Origin: Thermoanaerobaculia bacterium
Lineage (GTDB): Bacteria > Acidobacteriota > Thermoanaerobaculia > Multivoradales > JAIOJS01
Length of the DNA stretch: 64,000 nucleotides
Assembly (NCBI GenBank): GCA_963806095.1
Contig: CAWDWV010000002.1
Location: forward strand, 1,054,281-1,118,280
Reading direction: 5' to 3'
Part shown: one piece after another, positions 3,201 through 48,018 of the stretch
Position numbering within the stretch: position 1 is the stretch's first letter
Layout of the letters: the number at the start of each line of letters is the position of its first letter
The notes under the pieces: generated by a model
Told to the model about the DNA's origin: nothing
Database searches by the model: none
The model's input: only the letters and a program-made list of their open reading frames with translations
Translations under genes and position numbers: made by a program

Positions 3201-4130
3201 TCAGCGATCGCGGGTGGCGAGGCCGACGACCCGTCGGCGCAGCGGCGCGAGCTGTTCCACCGGCGGCAAGGACGTGGGCACCAGCGTTGCCTGGTCGAGC
3301 ATCTCTCCCCGCCGCCAGAAGCCGTCCAGGATCTCGACTGCCCGGGGTGAGCTCGTGGGCATCACGACGGTGGCGGTGAGCTCTCGATCGCTCACCATCT
3401 TCGCCCCTTCGTCGGGGAGGCCGTCACAGCCCACGATCGGGATGGTGCCGAGTCCGTCCGCGCCTCTCTCGGCTTCGTGACGCTGGAGGGCGCGGCGGAC
3501 ACCAAGCGCCATCGCGTCGTTCTGACTGACGATGAGGTCCACCTCGCGCGCTCTCTTGGCGCCGAAGCGCAGCCAGTCGCTCAGTGCCTGGTCCGCTCGT
3601 TCCGCTTGCCACTTGCCTTCGACGACGTGGACGTCGAGCCGACTGCCCACGACCTCCCGGAACCCCTTCTCACGGCTCACCGCCGACGGCGCGTTGTGGG
3701 CACCGAGGATGAGCAGCACCGTGCCTCCCTCGGGAAGCAGCCGCAAGCTCTGTCGCCCCTGGATGCGGCCGATCTCCGTCTGGTCCGGCGCCACCGCTGC
3801 GAGCAGCCGCTCCGGGAACTGCCGCTTCAGGCCCTCCAGGTACCTGGGTATCCGGTTGAGGACCACGCAGTCCACGCCGCCCTTGGCCAGCGCGCTCACC
3901 GCGTTCTCCATCTCGTCGCCGGCCACCAGGAGCAGGAGCACCCCGTCCGGCCGGGGATCGGCCCGCAGGACCTCGTAGCACTGACCCATCTGTCGCATGA
4001 GCGAGCCATCGGCGAACCGGGGCTCGATGAAGCCCAGTCCGCGCTCGCGGGCGGCCGAGCGGGCGCTCTCCACCAGCAGCTGTTGATAGGCGTTGTCGGC
4101 GTCGGCGAGCAACAACTGGATCCGTCGCAT
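3201..4130 (-). CDS. Periplasmic-binding-fold (LacI-type sugar-binding) domain protein with no HTH
   Basis: The protein begins MRRIQLLLADADNAYQQ... and has the typical PBP type I/LacI C-terminal domain pattern (VDCVVLNRIP, GAHNAPSAVSREKGF, DLIVSQNDAMALG). No DNA-binding helix-turn-helix is detected. It is convergent with uxaA (sugar-acid metabolism). Confidence 0.55.
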   Translation of the reverse strand: MRRIQLLLADADNAYQQLLVESARSAARERGLGFIEPRFADGSLMRQMGQCYEVLRADPRPDGVLLLLVAGDEMENAVSALAKGGVDCVVLNRIPRYLEGLKRQFPERLLAAVAPDQTEIGRIQGRQSLRLLPEGGTVLLILGAHNAPSAVSREKGFREVVGSRLDVHVVEGKWQAERADQALSDWLRFGAKRAREVDLIVSQNDAMALGVRRALQRHEAERGADGLGTIPIVGCDGLPDEGAKMVSDRELTATVVMPTSSPRAVEILDGFWRRGEMLDQATLVPTSLPPVEQLAPLRRRVVGLATRDR

Positions 4131-5445: not shown

Positions 5446-8400
5446 ATGAAACGCCATGAAACATCGCGGCGCGAGCAGCTTGCCGGCATTCGACGGCGGG
5501 GCCCCCTGTCCACGGTGAGTCAGGGCCTCATCGTCCGCTGCCCGGCGTGCGGCTCCCGCCTGCGCCTGCAGCCCGGCCGCGAGCTGCCCGACCGCTTCAA
5601 GGTGCGGTGCTCGTCGTGCGCCAAGCCGTTCCTGGTGCGGCGTAAGGACGAGGGACAGCGCCCGCCGGTCGACCCGCTCGACAACACGCTCACCGGCGAG
5701 AAGGTGCCGTCCTCGCCGGCTCTCGACGACCAGGCGACCCACGTCCACGACGCGCACCACCAGCTCACCGCTTCGCCTCCGTCCGTCGCTCCCCGCTCGC
5801 CGTTGCCGCCGTCGCAGCCCTCGCTGCAGCGCCCGGCTCCGGCGCCCTCGCCGCCGCCCACGCCTGCTGCCGCCTCCCGCCACACCATCGCCGGCGGCGG
5901 CGAGCAGCCGAGGAAGCTCGGCTCCACCTTCCTCCCCGGCGAGCTGGTGGCCGGCCGCTACCGCATCGAGCGCTTCATCGCCAAGGGCGGCATGGGCGAG
6001 GTCTACGACGCCTTCGACACCGCCCTCGGCGACCACGTGGCGCTGAAGACCATCCGCCCCGACGTCGCCCACGACGAGTCGGCGCTCGAGCGGTTCAAGC
6101 GCGAGATCCACCTGGCGCGCCAGGTCACCCACCGCAACGTCTGCCGCATCCACGACCTCGGCTCGCACTCTTCCGAGTCGCCGGTCGCAGCGCTCTACCC
6201 GCGCGGCGAGATCCTCTTCGTCAGCATGGAGCTGCTGCGCGGCGAGACGCTCGCCGAGCGCATCACCGAGAAGGGGCCGATGAGCGAGGCCGAGGCGCTG
6301 CCGATCCTGCGCCAGATGGCCGCCGCCCTCGACGCCGCCCACAAGGCGGGGATCGTCCACCGCGACTTCAAGAGCGCCAACGTGGTGCTGGTGCAGGGCG
6401 ACGGCGAGACCCGCGCCGTGGTCACCGACTTCGGCCTCGCCCGCGCCTCGCACCGCGAGTCGGGTGCCACGCTGACCGTCGCCGGCGCGGTGATGGGCTC
6501 GCCCGCCTACATGGCGCCCGAGCAGGTCGAAGGCAGCGGCACGACGCCGGCGGTGGACGTCTACGCGCTCGGCATCGTCGTCTTCGAGATGGTCACCGGC
6601 CGGCTGCCGTTCCGGGGCGAGAGCCCGCTGTCGACGGCGATCAAGCGGCTCACCGAGGCGCCGCCGAAGCCGAGCGAGCTCAAGCCCGGCCTCGACCCGC
6701 GGTGGGATGCGGGCATCCTGCGCGCGCTCGCCCGCAAGCCCGAGGAGCGCTTCAAGAGCGCCGGCGACTTCCTGTCGGCGGTCGACCCGTCGCCGATAGC
6801 CGCCGCCCTCGGCACCGCCGGCATCACCCGCAAGCGGCTCTTCCTCGCCGTCGCCGCCGGTTTCCTCGTCGCCCTGGCGCTGGTCGCCAACTTCTACGTC
6901 TGGCAGCGGCGCGCCGCCAACCAGGAGGGGCGGCTCGAAGTGCCGACGACGGCGCGGCCCGCGGTGGCCGTGCTCGGGCTCAAGAACGTCACCGCCGACC
7001 AAGGGCTCGACTGGCTGTCGACGGGGCTCCCCGAGATGCTCGCGTCCGAGCTCTCCGGCGGCGGCAGGGTGCGTCTCATCCCCAGCGAGAACGTGGCGCG
7101 GGCGCAGCTCGAGCTGGGCCTCGAGCCCGGCGGCACCTGGGGCAACGACACCCTCGAGCGCGTGCGCCGCAACCTCGGCTCCGACTACGTGGTGACCGGC
7201 TCGTACACAGCGCTCGGCGGCGGTCAGAACGGCCAGAACGGCCAACTCCGCCTCGACCTGCGGCTGCAGGACACGTCGACGTCCGGCAACTCCACCGCCG
7301 TCGCCGTGTCGGGGCCGCGCGAGGCCGTCTTCCAACTCGTCTCGCAGGCGGGCGCGAAGCTGCGCGAGGCGCTGCACCTGGAGTCCGGCGGCGCCCGCTG
7401 GTCGACCACCAACCCCGAAGCGGCACGCCTCTATGCCCAGGGCGTCGAGAAGCTGCACCGCTTCGATGCGCAGGGCGCCAGCGAGCTGCTGCAGCAGGCG
7501 GTGGCGGCGGACGCGCGTGACCCGCGCGCGCACTCGGCGCTCGCTTCCGCGTACACGGCGCTCGGCTATGTCGAGAAGGCGCGCGAGGAGGCGCGACAGG
7601 CGGTCGAGCTCTCGGCCGCGCTGCCCGAGACCGAGCGGCAGGAGGTGCGCGCGCAGTACCTCGAGGCGGCCGGCGATTGGGCCGGCGCGGCGCGCGCCTG
7701 GGACGAGATCTGGCGCCGCCAGCCCGACGACCTCGAGTACGGCCTCAAGCTGGCTCAGGCGTTGACGGCAGCCGGCGAGCCGGCGCGCGCCCTCGACGTC
7801 GCGGGCGTCCTGCGGCACCTGCCCTCGGTGGCGGCAGACGACGTGCGCATCTACTTCGCCGAGGCGAGCGCCGCCGGCGCGCTCGGTCAGTCGAAGGTGC
7901 AGCAGCAGGCGGCGGCGAAGGCGGCCGAGGTCGCCGCGACGCAGGGGGCGCGACTGCTGCGCGCCCGCGCTCTGCTCTACGAAGGGTGGGCGCTGCGCAA
8001 CCTCGGCAACCCCGAGCGCGCTCAGGGGGTCACGGCGGAAGCCGAGGGGCTCTTCCAACAGGCCGGCGACGAGTCGGGGGTGGCGAAGGCGCGGGTGCAG
8101 CGCGGGATCCTGCTCTTCGACCAGGGCGACCTCGACACCGCCCGTCGCAGCTTCGAGAAGGCGCTCGCCACCTACCGCCAGCTCGGCGACAAGGGGAACG
8201 AGGCGCAGGCGCTCAACAACCTCGCGTTGGTGCTCAAGAGCCAGGGTGACGTGCAAGCGGCGCTCGACCTCTACGGGCAGTCGCGCGCGCTGTCGCAGGA
8301 AACCGGCAACCGCGTCGGTGTGGCGAGCGCGGAGAACAACATCGGCGCCGTCGCCTCCAAGCGCGGCGACCTCGCCGGCGCGCTCGCCGCCTTCGACCAC

Positions 8401-41262: not shown

Positions 41263-42044
41263 CACCACCTGGATCGGCGCCGACAAGTCCGGCCCGCTCG
41301 CCGAGTCGATGAGGAAGCGCTGCCCGTCAGGCGACGCCACGTACGGCGAGGCCCCCCTCAGGATCGACCGCCGGATGCGCGTCGCGAACAGCTCGCGCGG
41401 CGTGCCGGCGTTGAAGGCGCCCGCGTTCGGCGTCACCGCAACCGCCATCAGCCGCAGGTCGGGCGCCAGGTAGTAGAGCTCGCGGCCGTCGCGCCGCCAC
41501 TGCGGCAGATGGCCGCCCGCCGTCGACACCTGCCACTTGGCGGCCGAGGGCGGCATCGTCTGCACGTAGACCTCGCTGCGCCCCGACTCGTCGGAGACGT
41601 AGGCGATGAAGCGGCCGTCGGGCGAGAAGCGCGGCTGCAGCTCGTCGGCGTCGCTCTGGAGCAGCACCCGCGGCGCGAGTTGCGGCAGCGCCAGCACCCA
41701 GACGTCGGACTTGGCGCGCGGGTCGCGGCGGGTGAAGGCGAGCAGCCGGCCGTCGCGCGACCAGTCCTCGGGGAAGTCCCACAGCTCCGAGCGCAGCAGC
41801 GCGGTCTCCTCGCCCGAGCCGTCGGTCGCCTGTTGGGGTGCGAGAGCGAGGAGATCGCCCGCGCCTCGCGCTCGAGGCGGCTGCGGCGGTCGGCGTCGGC
41901 GGCGAAGGCGCGCGGCAACACCTTGATCGCCACCGTGCGGTCCAGCCGCGTGTCGCGGGCGCGGTAGACCTCGCCCATGCCGCCGGCGCCGAGCAGCGCA
42001 TTGAGCTCGTAGGGCCCGAGCCGGGTCCCGTTCGGCAGGGTCAT
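41239..42044 (-). pseudogene. Remnant of a Ser/Thr kinase - PD40/TolB beta-propeller gene (kinase catalytic core missing)
   Basis: The N-terminal fragment has kinase subdomains I-III only ([22 protein letters not shown]...VAIKVL...SHPN). After a frame change at ~41810-41835 come PD40 repeats ([23 protein letters not shown]...). The HRD, DFG and APE motifs are absent. Confidence 0.5.
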
Positions 42045-42763: not shown

Positions 42764-43549
42764 TCAGCGTTTGGCCAGCGCCGTCCGCGCGGCCTCGCCC
42801 GCCGGCGTCAGCTCGAAGAGGTGCGACGGCGGCTTCGTCTCGTCGAGCGCGAGCAGCCGCACGCGGACGGGCGGGCGGCTGCCGACGAGGTCCTTGGCCA
42901 CGGTCACGGCCGGAATGGGCCGGGCGCCCGGGCGCCACTCGGACAGCTCGACCACGCGCGCCACGCGGCCGTTGGCGAGCCGGTAGTCGATGCGCACCGG
43001 CCGTCGCGTGCCTGCGCGCACGACGTAGGAGGCTCGCGGGTAGGGCAGGTCGACACGCTTGCTACGCAGGGCGAAGGTAACCAGCTCGGCGGAACCGGCG
43101 CCTTGTCGCGTCACGTCCTCGAGCGTGAAGTCGCGCGCGAAGCTCAGACCGACGAGCTCCTGCAGACTGATGCCGGCGGCGAGGCGGCTGGCGGTGCCGA
43201 GCTTGACCGGCCGCGCGCCGCGCGCGAGCAGCCAAGTGCCCTCGGGGCGCTGCAGGAACGCCTTGCCGTTCTGCTTGGGATCGAGGAAGCGCACCAGCGC
43301 CAGGTTGCCGTCGCGCCACACCTCGAAGCTCGCGGCGCCGGGGCCGGCGAGCGGCTCGACCCGTACCTCGGAGTGGAACGCCGCGGGCATCGCGCCGCCG
43401 AGGTCTGCGGCGGCCAGCAGCTCGCGATCGCCAGCGGTGGGCGGTGCGGCTGCCGCGGGCGCGACGAGCACGAGCGCTGCCAGGACGGCGGCGAGCGCCA
43501 GCGCGAGCCAGCGAAGCCCCAGGCGCAACGGACGGCGGTGGTCGCACAC
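42764..43549 (-). CDS. Secreted LolA-like / outer-membrane-lipoprotein-sorting-fold protein, co-oriented downstream of the ECF sigma. Hypothetical.
   Basis: GTG start with signal peptide (LRLGLRWLALALAAVLAALVLVAPAAAA). Beta-rich. The upstream part of the long six-frame ORF overlaps the sigma gene and is not coding. Confidence 0.45.
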   Translation of the reverse strand: MCDHRRPLRLGLRWLALALAAVLAALVLVAPAAAAPPTAGDRELLAAADLGGAMPAAFHSEVRVEPLAGPGAASFEVWRDGNLALVRFLDPKQNGKAFLQRPEGTWLLARGARPVKLGTASRLAAGISLQELVGLSFARDFTLEDVTRQGAGSAELVTFALRSKRVDLPYPRASYVVRAGTRRPVRIDYRLANGRVARVVELSEWRPGARPIPAVTVAKDLVGSRPPVRVRLLALDETKPPSHLFELTPAGEAARTALAKR

Positions 43550-43595: not shown

Positions 43596-44186
43596 TCAAC
43601 CGGGCTCGGGCGCGGCGTCGCCGCGAGCCAGCTCCTTCTGCAGGAACGCTCGCGCCGCCCGCGTGTCGCGCTTGACGGTGGGCTCGGAGACGCCGAGCAG
43701 CTCGGCGATCTCGGCCACTTCCAGGCCGCCGAAGAAGCGCAGCTCCACCACCTGGGCGAGCCTCTCGTCGAGCGCGGCGAGGCGTTGTAGCGAACGGTCG
43801 ATGTCGAGCAGCTGCTCGGCCTGGTCGTCGACGGCCAGCGGGCCGCCGGCCAGGGCGTCGACCGGCACGTGCTCGGCGCCGGCGCCGCGGCGGTCGGCAA
43901 GGCGCGCGCGGGCATGGTCGATCACGACCTGGCGCATCGCCCGCGCGGCGGTGGCGAAGAAGTGCTTGCGGTTCTCGAAGCTCATGGCCCTGCCGGCGAA
44001 GAGCTTGAGGTAGGCCTCGTGCACCAGCGCCCCGGTGTTGAGCGTGGCGCCTCGCCGGTGGCGGGCCAGCTCGGCGCGGGCGATACGCTGCAGGTCGGCA
44101 TAGACGATCTCCAGGGCCCGCGCCTGGCGTACCGGGTCGCTGTCGGCGCCGAGCGCCCGCGTCAGGTCGGTCTCGCTCTTGGCCAC
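43596..44186 (-). CDS. ECF-type RNA polymerase sigma factor (STK-associated ECF43-like subgroup suspected)
   Basis: Sigma-2 region (LVHEAYLKLF, FFATAARAMRQVVIDHAR). Sigma-4 HTH (VVELRFFGGLEVAEIAELLGVSEPTVKRDTRAARAFL). Confidence 0.85.
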   Translation of the reverse strand: MAKSETDLTRALGADSDPVRQARALEIVYADLQRIARAELARHRRGATLNTGALVHEAYLKLFAGRAMSFENRKHFFATAARAMRQVVIDHARARLADRRGAGAEHVPVDALAGGPLAVDDQAEQLLDIDRSLQRLAALDERLAQVVELRFFGGLEVAEIAELLGVSEPTVKRDTRAARAFLQKELARGDAAPEPG

Positions 44187-44306
44187 TCTGTTTGCCCATC
44201 CTAGTCCTGGAGCGCTCGCCGGTGAGCCGCGCCATCTCCGGATCGCGCGGATGCCCTACGTGGACGAGCGTCGCTGAAGGCGCCCCAAACCCGAAAGGAA
44301 CCCGCC

Positions 44307-44615
44307 ATGAAGAAGCTGATCGTCGGTACGGTGCTGGCACTCGCGGTCGCAACCTTCCTGCCCCGGGCGGCCTCGGCGGGGATCTGGGAAAACGGCGTCT
44401 GGGGCAACGGCATTTGGGAAAACGGCGTCTGGGGCAACGGCAACTGGTCCAACGGCATCTGGTCCAACGGCGCCAACCCCACCGCCATGAGCGATGGCGC
44501 TGTCCTCCAGGGCGGTCAGCGGCCGGCCGGTCCGCAGTGCACCGAGCGCGGCGTCGACTTCTCGGCGGTGCCGCTCGCCAAGGTGACCGTGAGGCTGCCG
44601 CAGCCGGCACGCTAA
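44307..44615 (+). CDS. Small secreted protein with a six-fold tandem W-x-N-G pentapeptide repeat
   Basis: The signal peptide MKKLIVGTVLALAVATFLPRAASA is followed by GIWENGVWGNGIWENGVWGNGNWSNGIWSNG. The underlying DNA is a 15-nt periodic repeat (ggcatttgggaaaacggcgtctggggcaac x2...). Confidence 0.55.
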   Translation: MKKLIVGTVLALAVATFLPRAASAGIWENGVWGNGIWENGVWGNGNWSNGIWSNGANPTAMSDGAVLQGGQRPAGPQCTERGVDFSAVPLAKVTVRLPQPAR

Positions 44616-44643: not shown

Positions 44644-45465
44644 ATGCGCAACCGGGTGCGTTCCGCCGCGGCTCTCGCCCTGGTTGCTTCGCTGGCACTT
44701 TTCTCGGCATCCACTCCCGCGGCGGCTGAGGTCGCCGCTTCCGCGCTGGTGCCCGAGCTCGCCGTCGAGGGCACGGCGTTTGTCCTACGCCAGCCCGACG
44801 GCACCGAGCTGCGCGGCGCCCAGTTGGTCGGCGCCGAGCTCGACCTCGGCGAGGGCGTCACGGTGCGTATCGACGCGGTGCGCCGCGACCCCGGCGACAA
44901 GAGCGGCGAGACGCTGCTGCACGCGCTGTCCACGCGCGATGCCGACGGCGCCTGGGTGCCGCTCTGCGACCCCGACCGCGAGAGTAGGCGCGAGGGCTTC
45001 CCGATCCCCGGCCGCTGGGACGACGCCGGCCGTTACCACGCCGACGGCGGCCACTTCGCCCTCACTTGCACCAGCGGCGCCCAGGCGAAGTGCGTTCGCT
45101 TCGGCTACAAGCCGTGGAAGCCGGCGCCCGACGGCGCTTCGCTGGTGCCGCTCTACGAAGCGTGCGTCCACATGGTGCGCGCCGACTACTGCGGCGACGG
45201 CGTCGCGACGACGCGCGAGGGCACCCAGATCGACATCTACGACCGCCACGGCGTGCAGCGGCCCGAGTCGGGGCCGGAGCTCCGCTTCGAGGCGGGGTGG
45301 GCGCCCACCGGCGCCGTCTGCGTGGCGCACACGCGCATCCCCGACAACCTCACGCTCGAGCAGCTCGCAAAGAGCTGCCCGCGCCTCGCCGCGGCGCTGG
45401 GCGAACGCTGCACCGAGGAGACGGCGGCGAAGCTCGGCGCCGTGCTCTTCAACCGCTCGCGGTAG
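44644..45465 (+). CDS. Secreted Cys-rich protein with an ADYCGDG motif (ADYC-domain-like). Hypothetical.
   Basis: Signal peptide (AAALALVASLALFSASTPAAA). Several conserved Cys (LTCTSGAQAKCVRFGY...YEACVHMVRADYCGDG...VCVAH...KSCP...RCTEE). Confidence 0.55.
   Translation: MRNRVRSAAALALVASLALFSASTPAAAEVAASALVPELAVEGTAFVLRQPDGTELRGAQLVGAELDLGEGVTVRIDAVRRDPGDKSGETLLHALSTRDADGAWVPLCDPDRESRREGFPIPGRWDDAGRYHADGGHFALTCTSGAQAKCVRFGYKPWKPAPDGASLVPLYEACVHMVRADYCGDGVATTREGTQIDIYDRHGVQRPESGPELRFEAGWAPTGAVCVAHTRIPDNLTLEQLAKSCPRLAAALGERCTEETAAKLGAVLFNRSR

Positions 45466-45483: not shown

Positions 45484-48018
<2,535 letters not shown>

Follow-up and report, generated by a model that had tools for sequence, protein, structure and literature searches.

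What does a small exported protein with six tandem Trp-x-Asn-Gly pentapeptides do, and from what kind of repeat does it derive? The question is raised by a gene at positions 44307-44615 of a stretch of 64,000 nucleotides (nt) of contig CAWDWV010000002.1 (GC content, 72.6%) from a Thermoanaerobaculia bacterium; the whole of this stretch is called here the window. A reading made from the bare sequence (the sequence-only reading) had singled out the gene as coding for a secreted mini-protein of a repeat class without characterised relatives. We describe here that the open reading frame (ORF) is a real, conserved gene, whose product belongs to a family of small signal-peptide proteins with Asn-Gly (NG) pentapeptides encoded almost always directly upstream of genes for ADYC-domain proteins. 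Both this pairing and the sigma factor/kinase cassette that surrounds it in the window were missed in the sequence-only reading.

The small gene and its product

The gene and the elements of its product are the following:

44307..44615, plus strand: small protein gene, ATG start, 102 amino acids (aa) plus stop
44294..44300, plus strand: ribosome-binding site AAAGGAA, 6 nt before the ATG, read from the sequence
44307..44378, plus strand: Sec-type signal peptide, residues 1-24, MKKLIVGTVLALAVATFLPRAASA, with n-h-c layout and conserved in homologues
44382..44471, plus strand: six 15-nt repeat units, located by Tandem Repeats Finder
44535..44612, plus strand: conserved C-terminal tail QCTERGVDFSAVPLAKVTVRLPQPAR, residues 77-102, from the homologue alignment

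The signal peptide, which was assigned by eye, is composed of MKK, a hydrophobic core of 15 residues and A-S-A followed by G, and cleavage is predicted after A-S-A (residue 24). The array, preceded by one G, occupies residues 26-55 and consists of the units IWENG, VWGNG, IWENG, VWGNG, NWSNG and IWSNG. The exact five-residue units and the 15-nt DNA period proposed in the sequence-only reading were recovered by Tandem Repeats Finder, with 6.0 copies at 44382..44471 (score 96), together with a 30-nt super-period of 2.9 copies (score 120). The proposed unit N-G-hydrophobic-W-x describes five of the units, the fifth one beginning with Asn, and the remainder, given as 55 aa, is in fact the 47 aa from residue 56 to residue 102, starting with ANPTAMSD and containing a single Cys (C78). 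The mature protein would be 78 aa long, the 30-residue array being followed by a tail that ends in ...VTVRLPQPAR. When all six frames were checked, this was the only W-x-N-G array within the window.

GC content in the ORF is 63% at the first codon position, 55% at the second and 88% at the third (GC3), and a GC3 of 88% in DNA with 72.6% GC fits a coding frame. Two candidate identities were rejected: that of a lipoprotein, since the signal peptide has no Cys, and that of a protein with a known C-terminal sorting signal, since there is no hydrophobic C-terminal segment. The W-x-N-G unit was not matched by any Pfam, NCBIfam, PHROG or PADLOC model, a search of PDB sequences with the family profile gave nothing significant, and an Rfam scan of the window gave no match.

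Homologues and selection on the repeats

A search of 5.8 billion proteins returned 19 homologues with 46-100% identity, among them an identical protein on record (P0002) and one entered as a hypothetical protein in a Thermoanaerobaculia metagenome-assembled genome (MAG). In a MAFFT alignment the signal peptide and the tail are conserved, and the differences in repeat number correspond to whole units in 16 of the 19, part-unit gaps being found in P0006, P0014 and P0017. The number of pentapeptides ranges from 3 to about 12 among these homologues and from 3 to >20 in the wider family of ADYC partners. The conserved C-terminal block reads QCTERGVD[F/L]SAVPLAKVTVRLPQPAR, and residues C78, D84, S86, A87, V88, A91, L97 and P98 show little or no variation.

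Selection was analysed by Nei-Gojobori estimates of the ratio of nonsynonymous to synonymous substitution rates (dN/dS) on DNA of six loci. Between Trp-bearing (W-type) arrays the ratio for the repeat region was 0.02-0.15 at dS 1.1-1.3, and the view of the repeats as conserved coding sequence was in this way borne out, with purifying selection acting among W-type homologues. For the signal peptide, values of 0.10-0.48 were obtained among five close members and of 0.52-0.96 in pairs with L002b, a paralogue with classical units; the window gene itself gave 0.23-0.37 with four of the five homologues compared, and 0.74 with L002b. For the tail, the window gene gave 0.18-0.35 against L004, L006 and L002b, and 0.52 and 0.74 against L020 and L002a, respectively. 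That the ORF with its Sec-type signal is a coding gene, as first proposed, follows from the 19 homologues, which keep signal and frame, the variation by whole units, the conserved signal and tail, and dN/dS values below 1.

Pairing with the ADYC gene

The stop codon of the small gene (44615) is followed after 28 nt by the start (44644) of a second gene on the same strand:

44644..45465, plus strand: gene of an ADYC-domain protein of 273 aa with its own signal peptide (PF20032, E = 3.6e-49)

The encoded protein is a typical full-length single-domain member of the ADYC family (PF20032), to which the small repeat protein itself does not belong. The ADYC alignment contains eight invariant Cys, which fits an oxidising compartment, as well as invariant Asp, Glu, Tyr and Trp residues. 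Its conserved segment RADYCGDGxATTRDGTxIDIYD is rich in Asp and looks like a putative metal-binding loop. The AlphaFold2 model of ADYC had a predicted local distance difference test (pLDDT) of 86; Foldseek found no neighbour of it in the PDB (best E = 0.14), a PDB sequence search gave nothing significant, and no similarity to enzymes was detected by sequence or by Foldseek. Literature searches on 'ADYC domain', PF20032 and the repeat strings found nothing relevant, nor was any of the papers retrieved with 'pentapeptide repeat' plus other terms relevant by its title or abstract.

The order small gene then ADYC gene is common to loci L001, L004, L005, L007, L008 and L009. In L006 the sigma factor gene and the small gene are present, but the contig breaks off too early for the following gene to be identified; in L002 and L003 the slot before ADYC is taken by a 135-aa paralogue with Leu/Phe (L/F-type) units and the same tail, and the W-type copy is found beyond the sigma gene. 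In cultured Tahibacter and Luteimonas and in a Lysobacterales MAG, an unannotated small ORF, in each case with a signal peptide and NG pentapeptides, ends 1-3 nt before the ADYC gene. Stop-to-start gaps are 1-3 nt in L007, L008, L009, L022 and L025 and 12-28 nt in L004, L002 and the window. The gaps of 1-3 nt suggest coupled, stoichiometric synthesis, and the small repeat genes are often translationally coupled to the ADYC genes.

The pairing extends far beyond the close homologues. Out of 277 relatives found through the ADYC alignment, 80 ADYC loci from GTDB species genomes were analysed, including Lysobacterales, Rhizobiales, Acetobacteraceae, Thermoanaerobaculia and Methylomirabilis, and 60 of the 80 have at least 4 period-5 NG units in a same-strand ORF just upstream of ADYC. 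A stretch h-x-[LMV]-[PA] (h, hydrophobic residue) is present near the C-terminal end of 40 of these 60 proteins, and 43 have Arg or Lys as the last residue, the C-terminal motif not being uniformly scored across the 60. Examples of such ends are DWSAVPLxxVxVRLPxxR and IAVELPxxxR, and the C-terminus of the window protein agrees with the tail h-x-h-x-L-P-x(2-4)-R, as do VQVRLPPAR and IAVELP..R. The window protein carries four marks of the family: signal peptide, NG register, C-terminal tail and an ADYC gene directly downstream. This ADYC-coupled NG-pentapeptide family, with its unit [L/I/V]-x-[L/F]-N-G, and its pairing appear to be undescribed so far.

A different arrangement is seen in Mesorhizobium, where the proteins upstream of ADYC in L032-L034, L038, L039, L041, L043, L044, L046, L058 and L060 have few, degenerate N-[S/G/A] units and a tail that is long and of another kind, in which 'S[V/I][V/I]DPN' recurs and which ends in ...NHDRPTPSPRR.

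The Trp unit as a variant of the pentapeptide repeat

The 60 partner proteins of other genomes have the following unit:

Position 1: L, I or V
Position 2: S, T, R or A
Position 3: L, F or M
Positions 4-5: N-G

The window protein has Trp at position 2 and E, G or S at position 3, NG being kept in all six units. The two types of unit are connected by several proteins. P0016, P0018 and P0147 have the same signal peptide and tail together with units such as NGIRL, NGITL, QGVKF and NGISL. P0018, which is named 'YjbI with pentapeptide repeats' in one source, and P0147 score marginally on the Pfam model Pentapeptide (PF00805); P0147 obtains 22.5 bits (cut-off 20.2), yet no single stretch of it passes. 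P0006 and P0013 mix W-type and L/F-type units in one chain with the N-G register held, as in IWENG...VWSNG TNLQG ISLNG. The window protein itself had no match to PF00805, PF13576 or PF13599 even at E <= 10. The claim that the unit has no characterised family stands, hence, for the unit as found in the window, in the databases mentioned above, and fails for the close homologues; through P0018, P0147 and the mixed-unit proteins the array is largely connected with the known pentapeptide repeats from which the sequence-only reading had kept it apart. Because of the PF00805 scores, the mixed-unit proteins and the kept NG register, the h-W-x-N-G unit is a derived state of a pentapeptide-repeat-like array and not an unrelated invention.

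Between W-type and L/F-type relatives, the dN/dS of the repeat region rises to 2.7-2.8 at a dS of only 0.23-0.31, values to be read with the caveat that the alignment of repeat units is partly arbitrary, whereas the flanks of the genes compared across the switch remain constrained. Taken together, the high ratio in the repeats and the constrained flanks suggest that the kind of unit changed by a discrete switch, after which each kind was conserved. A frameshift was rejected as the link between W-type and L/F-type units, because only substitutions separate their codons. The W-type state is derived and rare. Arrays with Trp at position 2 are also carried by ADYC partners from two alphaproteobacterial genomes (L027 and L057) and from a second Thermoanaerobaculia locus (L020), so that the W state seems to have arisen more than once. 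The two types coexist in one genome, since at L002 (L002:2548-3971) a W-type copy, P0017, is convergent with the sigma factor gene and an L/F-type paralogue lies directly before ADYC.

Pentapeptide repeat proteins (PF00805 clan) of the Rfr/Qnr/MfpA type fold into a right-handed quadrilateral beta-helix, and Qnr and MfpA are cytoplasmic DNA mimics. The window protein shares with them the strict five-residue tandem period and the Gly at the last position of the unit. It differs from the canonical A-[D/N]-[L/F]-x-x in having E, S or G at the centre instead of Leu or Phe, Trp one position earlier, at a site that normally faces outward, a bulky Ile or Val at i-2 instead of Ala, and Asn at i+1 instead of i-1. 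Moreover, it has only 6 units and it is exported, unlike the characterised Qnr and MfpA.

The sigma factor/kinase cassette

The small gene and the ADYC gene are flanked in the window by the following genes:

43596..44186, minus strand: extracytoplasmic function (ECF) sigma factor of the kinase-associated type, divergent (TIGR02999, PF07638)
45484..48018, plus strand: Hanks-type Ser/Thr kinase, 844 aa (Pkinase E = 2.1e-39, TPR_12 E = 2e-25)
42764..43549, minus strand: LolA-like exported protein, about 261 aa, GTG start (PF17131 E = 1.3e-4, below cut-off)

The sigma factor scores 186 bits on TIGR02999 (cut-off 126) and E = 1.8e-40 on PF07638, and its region 2.2 reads LNTGALVHEAY, with a conserved Thr visible. 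The kinase, 1.3 kb away from the sigma gene, is composed of an N-terminal extension, the kinase domain, a hydrophobic segment and C-terminal tetratricopeptide repeats (TPR). No anti-sigma domain was found among the window neighbours scanned, and a PADLOC scan gave only generic kinase matches. This layout is that of the ECF43 systems, in which the kinase activates the sigma factor by phosphorylation, as in EcfK/PknS of Xanthomonas citri and EcfP/PknT of Vibrio parahaemolyticus (PMC13147305). Signalling by PknS requires its periplasmic TPR domain, for which no ligand is known (PMC13147305). Like these systems, the cassette has a sigma factor that passes TIGR02999, a kinase of PknS-like layout and no anti-sigma gene. 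Of the ECF43 consensus QTTA in region 2.2 (PMC13147305) the window sigma factor, with NTGA, keeps one Thr. A further difference is that two exported proteins are encoded between sigma factor and kinase, whereas the account of EcfK-PknS (PMC13147305) mentions neither a small repeat protein nor an ADYC gene. In the text searched of the ECF classification paper pentapeptide proteins are not mentioned.

The pair lies between an ECF43-like sigma gene and a PknS-like kinase gene in Thermoanaerobaculia and Lysobacterales. Among the 80 GTDB loci, sigma factor and kinase flank it in 14, all of them of Lysobacterales (tblastn), and at the alphaproteobacterial loci both are absent within 4 kb and there is no conserved third gene. 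With a sigma factor and kinase at so few loci and no other common neighbour, the conserved core is the two-gene pair, and its sigma/kinase control is lineage-specific.

Other observations concern the surroundings. The LolA-like gene lies directly downstream of the sigma gene in the window; in L001 a minus-strand gene of similar size adjoins the sigma gene, and L020 encodes a 261-aa protein whose N-terminus matches the LolA-like protein (MCDHRRPL...) with no sigma gene nearby. By tblastn, a second Ser/Thr kinase domain was located at window positions 5932-6813 (plus strand, 31% identity) and a short kinase-like fragment at 41832-42029 (minus strand, 41% over 69 aa).

A promoter-like motif upstream of the repeat genes

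Alignment of the intergenic regions of the family gave the bipartite motif ATC[CT]C[CT]G-N14-[CGT]GTA[CT]GT, whose copy in the window is:

44234..44261, plus strand: putative ECF-type promoter ATCTCCG-N14-CCTACGT, 1 mismatch to the family motif

This is the only match in the window, where 0.13 would be expected by chance, and a scan for sigma-70 promoters found none. The motif is found without mismatch 19 times in 16 related loci of two phyla, in every case on the gene strand. The small repeat gene is directly preceded by a copy in 16 cases; a further copy stands before the second small gene of L025, and the other two are about 2.3 kb upstream, in L014 and L019 (L019:1316). In L025, from a Tahibacter MAG, the ADYC gene comes after a tandem pair of small NG-repeat genes (3225-3551 and 3640-3924, within L025:3154-3924), each of which has its own copy of the motif in front. 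In L014 (1125-3415) the second copy stands before an operon in which the gene of a 461-aa exported protein is followed by that of the sigma factor. Such a position would be expected under autoregulation, which it suggests together with a further member of the regulon. The motif would be the cognate ECF promoter.

Trp units in other proteins

When 1.84 billion representatives were searched with a profile, 1892 matched at E <= 0.001, most of them in the repeat only. Two groups were distinguished. The first contains long low-GC proteins filled with G-[T/I/V]-W-x-[N/D] units; P0140, P0141, P0144, P0166, P0183 and others have up to about 60 pentapeptides of the form G-[T/I/V]-W-x-[N/D/K]. P0140 (L091:5329-7407) is encoded on a T4-like phage contig, adjoining Gp23, UvsY and UvsW, and both P0140 and P0141 have a weak N-terminal match to phrog_20946. 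Many shorter low-GC Trp-repeat proteins share an N-terminal motif 'CPxWL' and a C-terminal domain 'IGCKxKTIxEWDxFF'. The second group is made of high-GC lipoproteins with a lipobox Cys and 10-25 N-G-[I/L/F]-[W/F]-x units; in P0176, P0216, P0219, P0223, P0234, P0238, P0240 and P0273 the units are N-G-[I/L/F]-[W/F]-[Q/S/T], and the repeats are followed by a conserved Cys-rich domain ...YARQLLQYIYxCAMP...DTxLDP....

None of these phage proteins and lipoproteins had a Pfam match, nor the lipoproteins an NCBIfam match, and a phage W-repeat protein gave nothing significant against PDB sequences. A comparison of lipoprotein P0216 with ADYC by hhalign (probability 0.4%) indicated no relationship. Both groups share with the window protein the unit type, with Trp or Phe second after Gly, but their flanking domains and contexts are unrelated to it; as the likeness to arrays outside the ADYC-partner family is limited to the repeats, it may be convergent. 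The Trp unit is a recurrent repeat type without a database model.

A model for the small protein and its alternatives

The reading that we favour, with a confidence only slightly above even, is that the small protein is exported as a partner of ADYC, with which it would form a complex via its tail, and that its synthesis would be induced by the sigma/kinase pair. In the model, by analogy with EcfK/PknS and EcfP/PknT, the transmembrane kinase would activate the ECF43-like sigma factor by phosphorylation, and the sigma factor would fire the motif at 44234-44261. One transcript would span the small gene, the gene of ADYC and that of the kinase. Sec would export both the small protein and ADYC, which would then cooperate outside the cytoplasm, most likely in a complex held by the conserved C-terminal tail. 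The repeat array would be a solenoid-like or extended module of variable length, whose surface chemistry, Trp versus Leu/Phe, would have been re-tuned in the lineage of the window.

Several points weigh against this model. The complex between the small protein and ADYC is one that we infer. The AlphaFold2 model of the small protein alone, from an alignment of 19 sequences, is unconfident throughout, tail included (pLDDT 46, predicted template-modelling score 0.16), and has no strands, so that it speaks neither for nor against the beta-helix/solenoid or Trp ladder put forward in the sequence-only reading; moreover, six units amount to only 1.5 turns of a four-sided pentapeptide helix and are too few for a stable one. 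The window copy of the promoter-like motif has one mismatch, and we know of no published ECF43 promoter consensus for comparison. At L002 the W-type copy lies beyond the sigma gene, not adjacent to ADYC, and a scripted scan found no clear upstream repeat ORF in 20 of the 80 ADYC loci. Lastly, Rosetta-stone support is missing because no fusion of repeat and ADYC was found: all of the 120 top matches (120/120) to a chimeric query cover ADYC only, being stand-alone ADYC proteins of about 260 aa that cover about 66% of the query.

The small protein could instead be the extracytoplasmic ligand of the kinase, its free C-terminal tail or its Trp array binding the TPR and closing an autocrine loop with the sigma factor and a self-induced promoter. 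TPR domains commonly bind the C-termini of peptides, and the TPR region of the window kinase lies C-terminal, beyond the hydrophobic segment; the small gene opens the operon, presumed to depend on the sigma factor, to which the kinase gene also belongs, and the preference for Arg or Lys as last residue (43/60) would suit such binding. The TPR requirement of PknS, with its ligand still missing (PMC13147305), points in the same direction. We consider this role unlikely, however, since 46 of the 60 repeat-bearing ADYC loci have no sigma or kinase gene within 4 kb, so that the repeats and, in most cases, related tails conserved there cannot serve the kinase alone, and since the W-type protein of L020 adjoins ADYC without a kinase.

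Alternatively, the protein may stand on its own as an exported structural or binding protein, for instance with a Trp ladder for glycan, peptidoglycan or membrane, and be merely co-expressed with ADYC. Trp residues at regular intervals are typical of surfaces that bind carbohydrates or interfaces, similar G-h-W-x-[N/D] arrays are found in the unrelated phage proteins and lipoproteins, and the repeat number is as variable as described above. Most family members, however, lack the Trp array and yet have the same position and tail, and the gaps of 1-3 nt to ADYC suggest coupled, stoichiometric synthesis, so that independence from ADYC is improbable.

A third possibility makes the small protein a substrate or precursor, ADYC acting as an enzyme on the Asn-Gly array, by cleavage or modification, to release peptides or a matured product. 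Asn-Gly is chemically labile, the units are near-identical repeats in a small protein, and the neighbour is an uncharacterised protein with invariant Asp, Glu, Tyr and Trp. Nevertheless, the units diverge greatly while the tail is conserved, the opposite of a conserved core peptide, and ADYC has no detectable similarity to enzymes by sequence or Foldseek. The cassette contains no known domain of a protease, of a transporter or of an enzyme for ribosomally synthesized and post-translationally modified peptides (RiPPs), and the kinase matches to lanthionine-synthetase models are far below cut-off (86 bits against 650). The idea of a modified peptide precursor, put forward in the sequence-only reading, found no support, there being no RiPP-type enzyme nearby and the N-terminus being a Sec signal and not a leader, and the wider possibility of a substrate of ADYC is very unlikely.

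Finally, a chance ORF across a DNA tandem repeat, although high-GC DNA yields many long spurious ORFs and several overlap the locus, can be dismissed with near certainty, because homologues down to 46% identity hold the frame through changes in repeat number, dN/dS is well below 1 at saturating dS, GC3 is as high as given above, and ribosome-binding site, signal peptide and synteny are all conserved.

Beyond the favoured model of an exported ADYC partner lies a broader proposal, which we regard as doubtful: the h-W-x-N-G array would be a distinct solenoid class with an external Trp ladder, repeatedly arisen from ordinary pentapeptides and present also in the phage proteins and lipoproteins, and the small protein and ADYC would make up a new extracytoplasmic module of two components, being both output and periplasmic co-sensor of TPR kinases of the PknS type.

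Implications

What is new at this locus is a Trp-substituted variant of a pentapeptide-like repeat within an undescribed gene pair. The interchange of W-type and L/F-type units in otherwise conserved proteins is a natural experiment on the re-coding of a pentapeptide repeat, and the occurrence of the Trp unit in phage proteins and lipoproteins suggests a class of repeats for which the domain databases have no entry. The uncharacterised ADYC domain, present in hundreds of proteins of Proteobacteria, Acidobacteriota and other phyla, gains a constant, previously unannotated partner, and with it becomes part of a two-gene exported module. Inside a cassette of the ECF43/PknS type, the two exported proteins and the promoter-like element are candidates for its output or for a co-sensor. 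If the broader proposal of a solenoid class and a co-sensor module were true, it would provide ECF43 signalling with the ligand side that is still missing.

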